Source: a virus
Lineage: Duplodnaviria; Heunggongvirae; Uroviricota; Caudoviricetes
Direction: 5' to 3' (one strand)
IMG/VR virus record: IMGVR_UViG_2541047816_000005
Coordinates: 1 to 47,623 of that record
Length of the DNA stretch: 47,623 nucleotides
Positions within the stretch are counted from its first letter, which is position 1. Every line of letters starts with the position of its first letter. The position numbers and the translations under genes were made by a program. The notes below the pieces were generated by a model. The model searched no databases. It was given only the letters and a program-made list of their open reading frames with translations, and had not been told where the DNA came from. This document shows positions 24,717 through 31,630 of this stretch, one piece after another.

Positions 24717-25049
24717 TCAGGGTGCAGAAGGACTAAAGATAAACGTTTTCTTCACGCCTTTACACGGCCTGTCCTTCTCAAATCGCCATTTTGCCATCGC
24801 CTTTACAACCTGCTCATCAAACAAATGGTGCGGCTCTGAACGGATAAACTCAATTCGGGTGACAGTACCATCAGCACCAATATCAAACTTCACATCAACC
24901 CGTCCCTTTATATAATTTGCCGCTGCATAGGCCGGATATTGTGGTAATGCCTTAACCAACTGTCGGGGCATATCTGTTTTATGTTGCGTACAGCCCATAA
25001 CCAGAGAAGACAACAAAATAATTAACGGAAGATTTCTTTTCATTTTCAT
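24717..25049 (-). CDS. outer-membrane lipoprotein with TonB C-terminal-like domain
   Basis: lipobox LVMGC with Thr at +2; PQYPAYAAANYIKGRVDVKFDIGADGTVTRIEFIRSEPHHLFDEQVVKAMAKWRFE aligns with the TonB C-terminal domain; start set at ATG 25049 (track start 25058 is GTG). Confidence 0.7.
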   Translation of the reverse strand: MKMKRNLPLIILLSSLVMGCTQHKTDMPRQLVKALPQYPAYAAANYIKGRVDVKFDIGADGTVTRIEFIRSEPHHLFDEQVVKAMAKWRFEKDRPCKGVKKTFIFSPSAP

Positions 25050-25381
25050 TCCCGGCACAGATAAGAATAAGTCTTATTCTAACAATGCCACCCTGTCGAT
25101 CATTAATCCTCTGCTTAATGGCAACGACAATTATCCGGCTTAAATCACAAATCAGACACATGACATAACAGGGCTTGCGAGGTAACACATCGTCCGGTTT
25201 CTTCCACCATCGCACCGGACCAGCGACCATGAGGGGACAACGCCGCGCTCCGTTAACGCGGTAAACCCCGGTGTGTATCGTTTTTGATTATCCCCGCACA
25301 CTCGCGCAGAGGAGTCTCCCTGTCGGGCTGCGGTCTCTGTTAATGCGGGGATACGGCGACAATACCGCGCATCAGCAAAAC

Positions 25382-25849
25382 TTATTTCAGGCACTGAGTG
25401 CGGATATATTCCTGCGCCACTTCCAGCTGCTTCTGCATCAGCATCAACCGCTCTCTGAGAGTGAAATAATCCCGTTCAGCGGTGTCTGCCAGTCGGGGGC
25501 CGGTTGCATTATCCACGCCGGAGGTGCCGGTGGCTTCACGCACGGTACCGGGGCAGGTGGCGTTGATCCGCAGGCGCTTACGACCAGCGGCAACATCAGC
25601 GCGCAGAGTTTCATTTTCAGCTCTCGCATCGGCTAATTCCCTCGAGTATCTGGCATCAAGTGCAGCAACATCACGCTGGCGCTGCTGCATATCAGTAATG
25701 GTTGCATTTGCCAGCTCCAGCTCTCTGGCTTTTTTATCGCGCTGCGCTTTGTAAGTGATGGCGTTATCGCGGTAATGATTCAGCCCCAGACTAAGCGCAC
25801 CACAGGCCACCAGCAGAGCAATGATGACCACACACAGAACGCGGTTCAT
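25382..25849 (-). CDS. rz: Rz-like inner-membrane spanin
   Basis: 155 aa, N-terminal TM then coiled coil; Rz1 embedded in the +1 frame. Confidence 0.8.
25444..25629 (-). CDS. rz1: Rz1-like outer-membrane lipoprotein spanin (embedded in Rz)
   Basis: 61 aa; lipobox LVVSAC; proline-rich [27 protein letters not shown] matches lambda Rz1. Confidence 0.75.
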
Positions 25850-25850
25850 T

Positions 25851-25964
25851 TCACCACCAACGGATTGCCCAGATCAGAACAGCAATGGCTATAATACGAA
25901 TGGCAAAGGCTGCCGCTCTTGTTAAATCCAGACAGGCTGGCGTCTCCACTTCAATGCCTTTCAT
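25851..25964 (-). CDS. possible 37 aa hydrophobic peptide ORF between endolysin and Rz
   Basis: hand-translated [37 protein letters not shown]; stop overlaps the Rz start; below the ORF-track size cutoff. Confidence 0.25.
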
Positions 25965-28288: not shown

Positions 28289-28641
28289 ATTTTCTCGTTG
28301 AAAGGTGTTGTCAAGAAAGTGACTACGGAATGAGCGGATCTTCGGGTTTGCTTCCGGCTGACTGACTGGCGCTGATTCTCTCAGCGGCCCTTTTATCAAT
28401 CTGCCTGCGCCAGAAATCGCGCACTGCCCTGTACCCACCCGAAAGAAGATACATAACACAGACTGCCGTACAGAAGTACAGCATCACCTGATGAATAAAT
28501 GTCATAATTTCTTACCGTTATGGTTGACAATGAGAACTGTTTTCATTTAAAAAACCGATATACGAAAGCATCTTTTCTTTACATTCTCCATTGGGATTAC
28601 CTCCGCCAGCTTCCATTCCTGCCGCTGGCGGCCTTTTTTTA

Positions 28642-30603
28642 TCATGCCGCAGCATCCGCGTTGTTCACTTCCACCTTCACACTGTCAATCAGCAGCGTAT
28701 ATGTCGCCGCCTTTGATATGCCTGTCAGTTGCAGTTTGTCCGCCGCCCCTGATGCCGGAGATTTCACCAGTGTGAACGGCGTCCCCCGTTTCTCATCCAG
28801 TACCGGCGTCACCTGAATGCTGTTGTTTCCGGCAAACTCAAAAGCCAGTGTGTGCCATCCGTTATCAAAGACCCCGAACGTATCCAGCTTCGCATTCGGC
28901 TTCTTGTGGTGCATCGCGTTCAGGTTCGTCGCATCCGTCTGCAGGAAGAAGGACATCAGCATGTCGTTGCCTTCCTCTGCCAGCGTCACTCCCTCCGGCA
29001 GGGACGACAACTGCCAGTAAATGCCCAGGGCAAACTGATTCGGCACCAGTGAACCCGGCAACTTAAACCGTACGCTCACACGTCCCCCCTTCTTCAGTAA
29101 CTCCACTCCCTGTCCGGCTGCATCATGCTCCAGAAACCAGATGTGGTTTTCCGGTTTATTCAGTTGCAGGGCCTTACCTCCCGTAGCCCCCGCATCACTG
29201 ACCACCGCTTCAGCAATGTTTTTGTTAACATTGTCTCCGCTCGCCGGTTTGTGATAATAGCGCCAGCCCTGTGATGCCAGGTCTTCGCCGGACGCCAGCA
29301 GACTCATCAGGGTTCGGTTACTGACCGGGGCTTCCGGCTCTCTCTCCGTACCTTCACCGGAAGGTCCGGTGGGCTTCACCGTATCAGGCTGTTTTCCGGT
29401 AATGAATTCAGCGTTTCTCCCGGCATGCACAAGAATCGCCGTTGCCAGACGGTCGGAAATAATCCCACGACGTGCCCATGATCCAAAATGCGTTTTACGG
29501 TCAGCCGTCGTCCAGGTTTTGGCGTCCGTTCGACCACCGGCTCCGTAATACCCAATATCCGCAACATCCGGATCTTCTGACGGCTCGTTGGTACCCACAT
29601 TTCGCCCGTTTTCATCCGTCATAAACGGCACAAAGAAGATTTTTTTTGCGGATTTCGTCTTGTATGCACCATACACCGCATCGTATTGCGAAGAATAAGT
29701 CTGCTTCCAGTAGTAGGTCGTGTCGCCACAAATCCAGGGAACTGATGACGGAGAGCCCCCGAGACACTGACCTCCGAATTCCGACAGGTCAGAACGATAT
29801 TTTTCCACCATGGAATCAAACAGCCCCGGCTGAGTGGCGTATGCACCCTGTTTCAAATCAAACTCGCCCTGCATCCAGACCACTGCAAGCAGAATATTTT
29901 TAGGGTTGGCCTTCAGTGCGGCCTGAGTACGGGTAAGCAGGTCCTTGTACAGTGGCTTATCTACACCCCAGCGTGCCGAGGTCTCGCTTGCGCCGGTGGA
30001 TTCGCTGAAGGTACCTTCATCGCCCGCCAAAAATGCAGAACCACCACGGCAGCACGGAACCAGAAGAATACCGGCATTCGCCGGAATAAACGGCAACAAT
30101 TTCTTCGCGATATGTAATCCCTGCCCCACGCATCCATACTGAGCTGCGCTGGCTTTCGGGTGTGAAAACTTACTCAAATCCTGAACATCATGCAGGCAGT
30201 GGTCCGCAGGAATAATGTCATTGTAGTTACAGGACGCACCACCCGGCGTGACAGTGCTGCGACGCGCCAGCTGTTTAATACGCGGGTCCGGACGGTCATA
30301 TGTCTCCGGCAGCGGAAGCCCTTCACCATACGCCATACCGTTTGACTGCCCGGCCAGGGCAACAACAAAGTAATACTCCGGGTTGCTGGTGGTGCTGATA
30401 ACTGCGCCTTCTCCATCCGACGGCTTCACCACCACAGGTGTGGTGACATCACCTTCCGCCGCAATGGCCTGCATCAGGGTATAAGGCGTGATGGCCACCG
30501 GACTGCCAAATGGCTGCCACCCCTCCTTCAGTTTTTGTGTCAGTCGTTTCGCAAGGTCTGACGGCGATGCCGCCCTGACCACGTCATAGTGTTTAAATGC
30601 CAT
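28642..30603 (-). CDS. prophage sialate O-acetylesterase-like protein (NanS-p type)
   Basis: 653 aa; conserved N-terminal domain MAFKHYDVVRA...GWQPFGSP followed by an SGNH/esterase-like region; typical position upstream of the lysis genes. Confidence 0.75.
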   Translation of the reverse strand: MAFKHYDVVRAASPSDLAKRLTQKLKEGWQPFGSPVAITPYTLMQAIAAEGDVTTPVVVKPSDGEGAVISTTSNPEYYFVVALAGQSNGMAYGEGLPLPETYDRPDPRIKQLARRSTVTPGGASCNYNDIIPADHCLHDVQDLSKFSHPKASAAQYGCVGQGLHIAKKLLPFIPANAGILLVPCCRGGSAFLAGDEGTFSESTGASETSARWGVDKPLYKDLLTRTQAALKANPKNILLAVVWMQGEFDLKQGAYATQPGLFDSMVEKYRSDLSEFGGQCLGGSPSSVPWICGDTTYYWKQTYSSQYDAVYGAYKTKSAKKIFFVPFMTDENGRNVGTNEPSEDPDVADIGYYGAGGRTDAKTWTTADRKTHFGSWARRGIISDRLATAILVHAGRNAEFITGKQPDTVKPTGPSGEGTEREPEAPVSNRTLMSLLASGEDLASQGWRYYHKPASGDNVNKNIAEAVVSDAGATGGKALQLNKPENHIWFLEHDAAGQGVELLKKGGRVSVRFKLPGSLVPNQFALGIYWQLSSLPEGVTLAEEGNDMLMSFFLQTDATNLNAMHHKKPNAKLDTFGVFDNGWHTLAFEFAGNNSIQVTPVLDEKRGTPFTLVKSPASGAADKLQLTGISKAATYTLLIDSVKVEVNNADAAA

Positions 30604-31201
30604 GAATCCTCCCGGCCGGGATAATATTGTGAGTAAAATAAGGAGCGGGCTGAAGTCCGGAAGTTACAGGACAATGGCAGAAGAGAGACGACAGCCCGCA
30701 ATTCGAAAAAGACCGCGCAGTTGCGCAGAGTGATTACTATGGGGTATTATTCGTCAGCTGAAATATTACTTCACGTTTTATTGTTTATTCCTTGCCGCCC
30801 GCGTCTCCCAGCGCGGGCTTTTTTTGTCCATAAGAAAGCCCCTCCGGAGAGGGGCTGGAGAGTGGCGCTATGTGCCATTGCATGATGCCGGGTGCCTCCC
30901 GGTGAGTTCAGCCCGGTGACACTGAACCCGCGTCATTCTCGTTTTGATAATCAGAGATTATACCATCACCAGTCGCCCCTCCGCTCAGGGGGATTCACCA
31001 TGCCGTTCTCTTTTAACAAATTCGCCGCTAACAGGACAACATTCCGCTTTCTGAGTTGTGAGGAATTTAACACTTCACACCTGTGTGCATTTTCTACAGG
31101 CTGATCCCAGCACCACAATACATCGCAGGCAACAGAAGCCAAATGCCCCACCACAGAAAAAACATGCAATTATGATTATTGTTTACTGCAAAGATGTAGA
31201 A

Positions 31202-31630
31202 TCACGGTTTAAAATCCAGCACTCCATTGTGAAATACTTTATATACTTCCGGAGACGGCGGAACTGGTATATCAGCATGCTTCACCGCATTCATCGCTTC
31301 ACGACATAAATCGGGGTCTCCACCTTCTCTTTTAACCTGTAGCAGAAGACCATTCGGGGCCATATACATTCTCAGTGAACACTCTTTTCCTGAATACTTA
31401 CTCGCATCCTTTAACTGTTCTTCTATGGCTTTCCTGACCTGAATGGCATACTGCCTGATTTCTTCACTGGCATCAGGGGTACGTTCCGATGAGCTCAAAT
31501 TTTGCGACTTTATTAATTTATCTGAGTGATACAGAGAAGCATCATAATTATTTGTCGATACATCTTTTGTGCAGCCAGTTGTCAGACTGGCTAATATCAA
31601 AACAAGAACTGGTACAGCACGGCAATACAT
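31202..31630 (-). CDS. outer-membrane lipoprotein with TolA C-terminal (domain III)-like fold
   Basis: lipobox LTTGC with Thr at +2; C-terminal 85 aa align with the TolA C-terminus (GKECSLRMYMAPNGLLLQVKREGGDPDLCREAM...PPSPEVYKVFHNGVLDFKP). Confidence 0.7.
   Translation of the reverse strand: MYCRAVPVLVLILASLTTGCTKDVSTNNYDASLYHSDKLIKSQNLSSSERTPDASEEIRQYAIQVRKAIEEQLKDASKYSGKECSLRMYMAPNGLLLQVKREGGDPDLCREAMNAVKHADIPVPPSPEVYKVFHNGVLDFKP

Follow-up and report, generated by a model that had tools for sequence, protein, structure and literature searches.

The IMG/VR virus record IMGVR_UViG_2541047816_000005, analyzed here over its entire 47,623 nucleotides (the window), is a lambdoid, Stx-phage-like Escherichia coli prophage with its late genes on the minus strand. 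Two genes of this strand encode predicted lipoproteins, one containing a copy of the C-terminal domain (CTD) of TonB and the other a copy of domain III of TolA (TolAIII). Both open reading frames (ORFs) lie where an earlier note, made from the letters of the sequence, had placed them, except that the Prokaryotic Genome Annotation Pipeline (PGAP) starts the TonB-like gene at the ATG at 25043 (108 amino acids) instead of the alternative ATG at 25049 used in the note (110 amino acids). The two genes and the spacers 5' of them are as follows.

24717..25043, minus strand: TonB C-terminal-domain lipoprotein gene, 108 amino acids, lipobox LVMG-C18 with Thr at +2, in the slot after Rz (the "bor" slot)
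25044..25381, minus strand: spacer between Rz and the TonB-like gene; a block common to prophage Perceval and O157 prophages lies ~110 to 195 bp upstream of the gene (~25155-25240)
31202..31630, minus strand: TolA domain-III lipoprotein gene, 142 amino acids, lipobox LTTG-C20 with Thr at +2, in the slot after Q and tRNAs
31631..31908, minus strand: AT-rich spacer (G+C, 0.38) 5' of the TolA-like gene, with a weak sigma-70-like match at 31790..31761 (9/12) and a GGAG ribosome-binding site

That each protein is a stand-alone copy of a transducer C-terminal domain, as the earlier note had claimed, was confirmed by profile searches. The TonB-like protein matches Pfam TonB_C (PF03544) with 54.8 bits (cutoff, 24.6; E value, 1.3e-14) and NCBIfam tonB_Cterm (TIGR01352) with 54.5 bits (cutoff, 27.1). 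A phmmer search finds the E. coli TonB CTD structures 1u07, 2gsk, and 2grx with E values of ~1e-15 over TonB residues 153 to 231, and a gapless alignment with this segment, which starts ~9 residues after the lipobox cysteine, contains 31 identities in 79 positions (39%). The AlphaFold2 (AF2) model shows a pLDDT of >93 over the domain and is superposed by Foldseek on 2gsk_B, the TonB chain from the BtuB complex, with a TM score of 0.91 and a root mean square deviation (RMSD) of 1.1 Å, and on 1u07 at 2.0 Å; 1xx3 and 2grx are matched as well. The PQYPA motif is kept together with aromatic residues aligned with TonB F180, F202, W213, and F230, with Y215 replaced by phenylalanine. Work from the Postle laboratory reportedly demonstrated the functional importance of these five aromatic residues of TonB and of the PQYPA region. 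The protein contains neither the N-terminal membrane anchor with its SHLS motif nor the proline-rich spacer of TonB, having a lipoprotein signal instead, and its best score with the NCBIfam TonB equivalogs (PRK10819) is 74 bits, compared to cutoffs of 265 to 448, with only model positions ~152 to 240 covered. The globular TonB domain ends in ...KKTFIFSPSAP and has no hydrophobic tail. PHROGs places the protein in PHROG 1267, with the label "Rz-like spanin" and the category lysis. An identity as a spanin is ruled out by the separate Rz/Rz1 pair, the globular TonB fold, and the missing C-terminal membrane segment; the label looks positional, since the protein is a folded TonB domain without such a segment.

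The TolA-like protein consists of its signal peptide, a low-confidence linker of ~33 residues (positions 21 to 53), and a TolAIII domain (positions 54 to 142). It matches the Pfam TolA C-terminal family (PF06519) with 81.9 bits (cutoff, 25; E value, 3.8e-23) over profile positions 7 to 96 of 96, and phmmer aligns it with the E. coli TolAIII structures 1s62, 3qdp, and 1tol with E values of ~1e-26 over TolA residues 333 to 421, a segment with which it shares 48 of 89 residues (54%) in a gapless alignment. Both cysteines of the TolAIII disulfide are retained, as is the C-terminal sequence LDFKP, corresponding to the β3 strand of TolA (L417-D418-F419-K420-P421). The structure prediction that held for the TonB-like protein was not reproduced here: the AF2 model is too poor (pLDDT of 54; RMSD of ~8 Å), and for this reason the sequence match was used for this protein and not a superposition. 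Despite the poor model, the significant matches in the PDB are TolAIII structures only. Domain I of TolA, the membrane helix, and domain II, the long helical spacer, are absent. The protein passes the TIGR02794 model with 74.2 bits (cutoff, 59.45), although with model positions 266 to 362 only, and fails PRK09510 with 104.6 bits (cutoff, 213; positions ~297 to 387 only). The clearing of the TIGR02794 cutoff leads to the PGAP/RefSeq name "tolA: cell envelope integrity protein TolA" (WP_000271630.1), which is a misnomer for a lipoprotein of 142 amino acids and likewise for its short homologues in Serratia, Klebsiella, and others. Hundreds of genomes contain a non-TolA gene named "tolA," which may mislead pangenome and essentiality analyses.

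The earlier note had called the two genes unrelated, a description that does not extend to their domains, as the TonB and TolA domain folds are distant homologues. Both proteins of the window weakly match Pfam TonB_2, and the model of the TonB-like protein additionally retrieves TolAIII structures.

The signal sequences were tested with a PROSITE PS51257-type pattern (charged n-region, hydrophobic h-region, and lipobox cysteine within the first ~35 residues). Both proteins show this pattern, with LVMG-C18-T-Q in the TonB copy and LTTG-C20-T-K in the TolA copy, and the controls Rz1 and Iss pass it as well. The lipobox cysteine is invariant across all full-length relatives of both proteins, in agreement with the lipoprotein character and the threonine at +2 noticed before. 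In 48 relatives with a strict lipobox, the +2 residue is T, S, A, V, Q, N, H, M, G, or E and in none of them aspartate. These signals predict sorting of both proteins by the Lol system to the inner leaflet of the outer membrane.

Both genes look like independent morons at fixed slots of the late operon, and the moron character given to them in the earlier note is supported. Their G+C content is 0.42 to 0.43, compared to ~0.55 in the neighboring late genes. The TolA copy lies directly after the tRNAs downstream of Q, where Stx phages of a similar backbone hold stx, and the tRNA pair 5' of it mirrors the tRNAs 5' of stx in these phages. The TonB copy follows Rz/Rz1, where lambda, phage 21, and many prophages hold bor or iss. 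The contents of the slots vary, with a TolA-like gene, TerB, or stx at one and a TonB-like gene, Bor/Iss, or nothing at the other. The ratios of nonsynonymous to synonymous substitutions (dN/dS) of ~0.1 to 0.3 for the TonB-like gene and ~0.25 to 0.45 for the TolA-like gene indicate purifying selection. The homologue of the TonB copy in prophage Perceval (72% identical) is a moron transcribed 8-fold over the prophage background in an LF82 lysogen (Misson et al. 2023; PMC9928086). Although the holin gene of this prophage is frameshifted, neither lipoprotein gene is disrupted. Purifying selection, the transcription of the homologue in the lysogen, and the intact genes beside a broken holin favor a function benefiting the lysogen.

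The distribution of the genes was determined in 5,426 complete E. coli genomes and at informative IMG/VR loci. The TolA-like gene is found in 897 of the genomes, mostly as a class ~83% identical in DNA, and the TonB-like gene in 415, mostly with >99% identity. The entire 8.6-kb arrangement occurs in 22, and this region of the window is identical to that of the bloodstream isolate E. coli GN02050 except for one base. At 28 informative TonB-like loci the TolA-like gene is present 5 times, with a sixth case just past the flank, and TerB 4 times. Conversely, the TonB copy is found at 4 of 7 informative TolA-like loci of the window's own class and at none of 32 loci of the commonest (68%-identity) class. 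Phage 21, Perceval, the Stx1a phages, and one O157:H7 prophage have only the TonB copy; that of the Stx1a phages is identical, and their match to the window ends short of the TolA gene, while the O157:H7 prophage carries TerB and DUF3927 at the other slot. The TonB-like gene co-occurs with stx1, TerB, or nothing recognizable at the other slot. No sequenced phage record contains both genes, the TonB copy being present in 15 (phage 21 included) and the TolA copy in one (mEp460_ev081). Because the genes assort independently across loci, their co-occurrence is attributed to a shared backbone rather than to a functional link, and the paired system envisaged in the earlier note is not supported. Its implied novelty is likewise restricted for the TonB copy, which had been annotated as "partial tonB-like membrane protein" in CP-933N, "TonB C-terminal domain protein" in phage 21, and "TonB fragment" in the LF82 prophage Perceval, where it is listed as a lysogen-expressed moron. 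New here are the misnaming of the TolA copy, its membership in a large, diverse family of lipoproteins with TolAIII alone, part of which is chromosomally encoded, and the tandem copies in most E. coli prophages that carry them.

Such tandem copies characterize the commonest TolA-like class, 56 of whose 60 loci have a second, highly diverged TolA-domain paralogue of 124 amino acids ~170 bp 3' of the TolA-like gene. It is ~28% identical, matches Pfam TolA with an E value of 1.1e-14, has the lipobox VAGC-T, and contains GFDMRG in place of LDFKP in the C-terminal strand. E. coli 98221 is an example with two tandem TolA-domain lipoproteins (the second at 9533-9907 of locus L004), Iss after Rz, and no TonB copy. 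The sequences of the tandem paralogues suggest different ligand ranges. The allele of the window itself looks like an intragenic recombination mosaic when compared with its own class. Its signal peptide and linker are identical to those of the other alleles, and all of the ~21 differences lie in the domain codons 54 to 142, with the amino acid changes clustering from about codon 103 to the end. They reach the ligand-binding strand (VYKVFHNGVLDFKP compared to VYKAFRNGVLDFKL) in 31202-31330, and the C terminus resembles the other class.

With the TolA copy as the query, an exhaustive phmmer search yielded 330 cluster representatives. Among the best 150 of these, 76 are 100 to 170 amino acids long, of which at least 48 have a strict lipobox and a few an ordinary signal peptide. 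Serratia, Klebsiella oxytoca, Tatumella, and Morganella are the sources of named TolAIII-only members, almost all of which bear the name "TolA." In 35 diverse TolAIII lipoproteins neither the lipobox cysteine nor the disulfide cysteines vary; among the segments, conservation is highest in the C-terminal strand and helix 2 and lowest in the linker. The lipoprotein of Serratia (S. marcescens and S. proteamaculans; 7001-7444 of loci L172 to L177) is chromosomal and adjoins icd, a known prophage attachment region; in one Serratia genome a prophage (CI/Cro, RusA, and KilA-N) lies between icd and the gene, and one IMG/VR contig ends with a gene of the Serratia type. The Serratia lipoprotein may be a domesticated moron left at the attachment site. 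TonB_C-only lipoproteins ~45% identical to that of the window are found in Raoultella planticola (locus L166, 10004-10339) and Klebsiella sp. (locus L179, 7001-7336) at a syntenic nonprophage locus near lacZ/lacY/lacI, beside a Rick_17kDa_Anti lipoprotein gene.

In K. oxytoca (locus L178, 3117-3554) the TolAIII-only lipoprotein gene lies just 5' of a CdiB/CdiA-like gene pair, which encodes a transporter of the ShlB type and a large exoprotein (TPS/DUF637). This context hints at a link to contact-dependent toxin systems.

The chances are judged about even that the two independent moron lipoproteins act as force-less decoys for TonB and TolA ligands. We infer an outer-membrane location, ligand binding, and a protective phenotype for both proteins. 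Each would display in the periplasm only the partner-docking domain, the TonB CTD or TolAIII; the anchor in the membrane and the spacer, through which the genuine transducers are linked to their motors (ExbBD or TolQR), are missing. TonB and TolA alike bind their partners by β-strand augmentation (PMC7391070), and by the same type of binding the copies would compete for ligands that normally dock on TonB or TolA. The TonB copy, with its short tether and retained β3 strand, would be held close to the TonB boxes of outer membrane transporters and group B colicins and could bind them, leading to less entry of TonB-dependent colicins, microcins, and phages. The TolA copy on its 33-residue linker would sit where colicin translocation domains and the filamentous-phage protein g3p emerge. 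There it would bind group A colicins at their TolA-binding epitopes, g3p at its N1 domain, and, with less strength, TolB at its N terminus; dead-end complexes would reduce the entry of Tol-dependent colicins and filamentous phages. ColN-T of colicin N and g3p-N1 bind TolAIII via its β3 strand with affinities of ~1 to 12 µM, compared to ~40 µM for TolB, with which they are concluded to compete for the same TolA site, and the exchanges D418P and K420P in TolA abolish the binding of both to TolAIII (PMC4339652). Given the tighter affinity of ColN and g3p, a TolA decoy would favor invaders over the housekeeping partner TolB.

Laboratory constructs provide a close parallel to such decoys. Periplasmic TolAIII (Levengood-Freyermuth et al. 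1993) and periplasmic TonB fragments (Howard et al. 2001) are reported to make cells tolerant to colicins and phages. These dominant-negative constructs contain the same domains, uncoupled from the motor and located in the periplasm, but are soluble, overproduced fragments of the host proteins, whereas the proteins of the window are natural, diverged (39 to 54% identity), predicted to be lipid anchored, and prophage borne. Genuine TonB and TolA have homologous CTDs, which are apparently complete in the copies, including the TolAIII disulfide cysteines, the β3 strand, and the YP motif of TonB; in contrast to them, the copies lack the N-terminal membrane helix and spacer and cannot transduce energy. 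Exclusion by pIII/g3p of filamentous phages also targets the TolA-g3p interaction, and with g3p-N1 or pIII in the periplasm, cells become resistant to colicin A and take up phage at a level 4 logs lower (PMC10424213). There, however, the phage protein sequesters host TolA, while the TolA copy would sequester the incoming ligand, as a mirror image. The precedents with soluble TonB and TolAIII fragments and with periplasmic g3p demonstrate that such a block of the pathway is feasible. Cor (phi80, N15, and HK022) and Llp (T5), which mediate superinfection exclusion, are small phage-encoded lipoproteins of the outer membrane, the location predicted for the proteins of the window, and block an import route, giving protection from other phages and, in the case of Cor, from colicin M, at some cost to siderophore uptake (PMC3594210; PMC9586334). 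Their target is a single receptor, FhuA, and they do not copy host domains; the window's proteins would act one step further in, at transducer docking, and potentially on all TonB- or Tol-dependent cargo. Pfam and PHROG scans of both proteins gave only TonB_C/TolA-type families and no Cor or Llp, with no direct sequence comparison to Cor/Llp made. Bor/Iss and Stx share the late slots and the character of low-G+C cargo dispensable for phage growth but are unrelated in protein and function, and Bor is encoded on the opposite strand, in contrast to the TonB copy on the late strand.

Several points weigh against this decoy mechanism. For the TolA copy, the predicted structure has low confidence. 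The TonB copy has only 39% identity with TonB and differs from it by Q160 to L and R166 to Y, so that its ligand range may differ from that of the host TonB. Consensus scans gave only weak promoter-like matches at either gene; the TolA-like gene lies in the late transcript, and transcription in the lysogen is reported for the Perceval TonB homologue only. The fixed chromosomal homologues hint at a role in envelope physiology apart from phage defense. A decoy for TonB should also come at the expense of iron and B12 uptake, a drawback that sits poorly with a host isolated from the bloodstream. Full-text searches yielded no functional literature on either protein, and a PADLOC scan for defense systems gave no match for either. 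Two publications considered in this connection were set aside: PMC7724020, on the iron-related prophage genes orf6 and orf10, concerns a tail-fiber protein and an unrelated ORF, and PMC11125564 mentions TolA only loosely.

Other functions would fit the position of the genes. On the late strand, 3' of Q and the pR'/tR'-like element, flanking the lysis genes and without a strong promoter of their own, they could be late-lysis accessories. Free domains made late and in bulk would then inhibit Tol-Pal or TonB, loosen the outer membrane (tol phenotype and blebbing), and aid spanin-mediated release or stop uptake in the dying cell, any benefit to the lysogen being incidental. Defects in tol destabilize the outer membrane and cause vesiculation (PMC7391070), and the filing of the TonB copy under lysis by PHROGs points in the same direction. 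Such a role is nonetheless held to be unlikely, as the Rz/Rz1 pair is already complete, the TonB copy is a folded domain lacking a C-terminal membrane segment, and the proteins encoded at these slots elsewhere (Stx, TerB, and Bor/Iss) are not lysis proteins; the Perceval homologue is expressed in the lysogen (PMC9928086), both genes are intact where the holin is broken, and chromosomal homologues exist without a lysis cassette. The use of the TonB-copy slot by Bor/Iss, the bloodstream-isolate host, and the presence of Lom, an OmpC/NmpC-type porin, and NanS-p in the prophage suggest instead lysogenic-conversion factors for envelope physiology or virulence, which would tune Tol-Pal or TonB activity, vesicles, serum resistance, or iron-transporter signaling. 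The conserved chromosomal homologues in Serratia, Klebsiella, and Raoultella and a weak Fur-box-like palindrome 5' of the TonB copy agree with this explanation. It is considered rather unlikely all the same: nothing ties these genes to virulence, the Fur-like site is at best a ~1-in-10 chance match and not conserved, and what the family conserves is the strand for ligand docking, pointing to ligand competition.

An obligate two-component system of the TonB and TolA copies could cover both colicin import routes, and the presence of both genes in this prophage, the 22 genomes with the full arrangement, and the 4 of 7 loci of the window's TolA-like class would agree with it. The co-occurrence of 5 (or 6, with the one past the flank) in 28 and 0 in 32, the differing genome counts (897 and 415), the phages and prophages with only the TonB copy, and the lack of a sequenced phage record with both make it a very improbable explanation. 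Scarcely credible, too, is nonfunctional debris, that is, host tonB and tolA fragments gained by aberrant recombination, as the early annotations "partial tonB-like" and "TonB fragment" might imply. Each gene has acquired a lipoprotein signal with an invariant cysteine, dN/dS is <0.5, and both genes are widely conserved, their G+C content is unlike host values, identity to E. coli TonB and TolA is only 39 to 54%, and the TonB homologue is transcribed (PMC9928086).

If the decoy mechanism is true, a common prophage cargo would shift sensitivity to groups of colicins and microcins and to filamentous and TonB-dependent phages. This would amount to a new exclusion principle, in which the host docking domain is copied rather than the receptor blocked, and would have consequences for how strains compete in the gut, for therapy with phages or bacteriocins, and for siderophore-antibiotic conjugates that require TonB. 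More tentatively, with the balance of probability somewhat against it, TolAIII-only and TonB-CTD-only "transducer-domain decoy" lipoproteins may form an unrecognized, widespread envelope defense of the Enterobacterales, prophage borne (8 to 17% of complete E. coli genomes, frequently with diverged TolAIII copies in tandem) or fixed in some chromosomes (Serratia, Klebsiella, and Raoultella), with a ligand strand diversifying in an arms race. Such a class would capture colicins, microcins, contact-dependent toxins, and phage entry proteins by their TolA- and TonB-binding epitopes, and a prophage with both copies, like that of the window, would confer simultaneous tolerance to colicins of the two import groups.

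The spacer 5' of the TonB copy (25044..25381) gave no convincing promoter in a consensus scan. Its block at ~25155-25240 could be a small gene or the regulatory region of the moron. Phage 21 annotates an ORF of 45 amino acids (CPT_21_72; locus L170, 4352-4489) 5' of its TonB-like gene. An 8-1-8 palindrome, AGAATAAGaCTTATTCT, at 25060-25078 shows a 13/19 match to the Fur-box consensus. Iron regulation of the TonB copy by Fur was rejected, with 15 such sites in the window (~0.1 expected in the spacer) and the right half missing in Perceval.

In the direction of transcription, the late region begins with Q (quuD), a porin gene of the OmpC/NmpC type on the opposite strand, and the pR'/tR'-like promoter and terminator. 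A truncated methyltransferase gene, two tRNA genes, the TolA-like gene, nanS-p, DUF1378, and DUF826 follow, and then the class II holin, a split DUF1327 gene, lysozyme, a small ORF, and Rz with embedded Rz1. The TonB-like gene is followed by YlcI, an HNH endonuclease, terminase, HK97-type head genes, lambda-type tail genes, Lom, and the tail fiber. The lysis cassette placed between the two lipoprotein genes by the earlier note is thus present with class II holin, lysozyme, and Rz/Rz1, but nanS-p, DUF1378, DUF826, and the DUF1327 gene lie between them as well, and the holin gene is frameshifted. The features of this region are as follows.

25382..25849, minus strand: Rz i-spanin, with the Rz1 o-spanin embedded at 25444-25629; the pair is complete
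25851-25964, minus strand: small ORF between lysozyme and Rz (phrog_4493, function unassigned; hypothetical in RefSeq)
26186..26719, minus strand: phage lysozyme (endolysin)
27750..27963, minus strand: class II (S21-like) holin gene, interrupted
28642..30603, minus strand: NanS-p-type sialate O-acetylesterase (DUF1737, SASA, and DUF6645), a late-operon accessory typical of Stx-phage-like prophages
30713..30856, minus strand: terminator-like hairpin cluster ~350 to 490 bp 3' of the TolA-like stop codon, ahead of nanS-p
31909..32070, minus strand: two tRNA genes directly 5' of the TolA-like gene, Arg-TCG and one with a CAT anticodon (Met by ARAGORN, Ile by PGAP)
32452..32691, minus strand: probable pR'/tR'-like late promoter and terminator, ATGACA-17-TATAAT (11/12), with a strong hairpin and T-run ~200 nucleotides further on
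32840-33982, plus strand: OmpC/NmpC-type porin gene between Q and the probable late promoter

Judging from the position of the pR'/tR'-like element, both lipoprotein genes would belong to the late transcript that depends on Q. The layout is that of a lambdoid pR'/tR' unit (6S-like RNA), and the porin gene separates it from Q. In the LF82 lysogen, the porin homologue of prophage Perceval is transcribed at 10-fold the background level (PMC9928086). Compared with the GN02050 prophage, to which it is otherwise identical, the holin gene has a 1-bp deletion near 27853 (GGGCGGCAA to GGGC-GCAA), leading to a premature stop at 27847 and a product that ends after ~37 codons. This indicates either a lysis-defective prophage in this strain or an assembly error. 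The ORFs at 26756-27241 and 27256-27744 (minus strand) match the C-terminal and N-terminal halves, respectively, of phrog_1085 (296 positions), whose N-terminal half is DUF1327/YdfR; they appear to be one split gene within the lysis cassette, the upstream ORF being a truncated pseudogene according to PGAP.

A link of the TonB copy to the receptor of the phage itself was dropped, as no receptor was assignable from the tail-tip protein J, whose C-terminal 300 amino acids match those of long-tailed Stx-type prophages and share only 50% identity with lambda J. The region 3' of the tail fiber showed no Cor-like gene. The prophage contains five accessory genes related to the envelope or surface, namely, the porin, Lom, NanS-p, and the two lipoproteins. 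The 2.6-kb portal gene (~16668-19252, minus strand) is marked "frameshifted" by PGAP here and in an unrelated O157:H7 prophage (locus L003, 14795-17379), and this recurrence suggests a conserved feature, a fusion or a programmed shift, and not decay.

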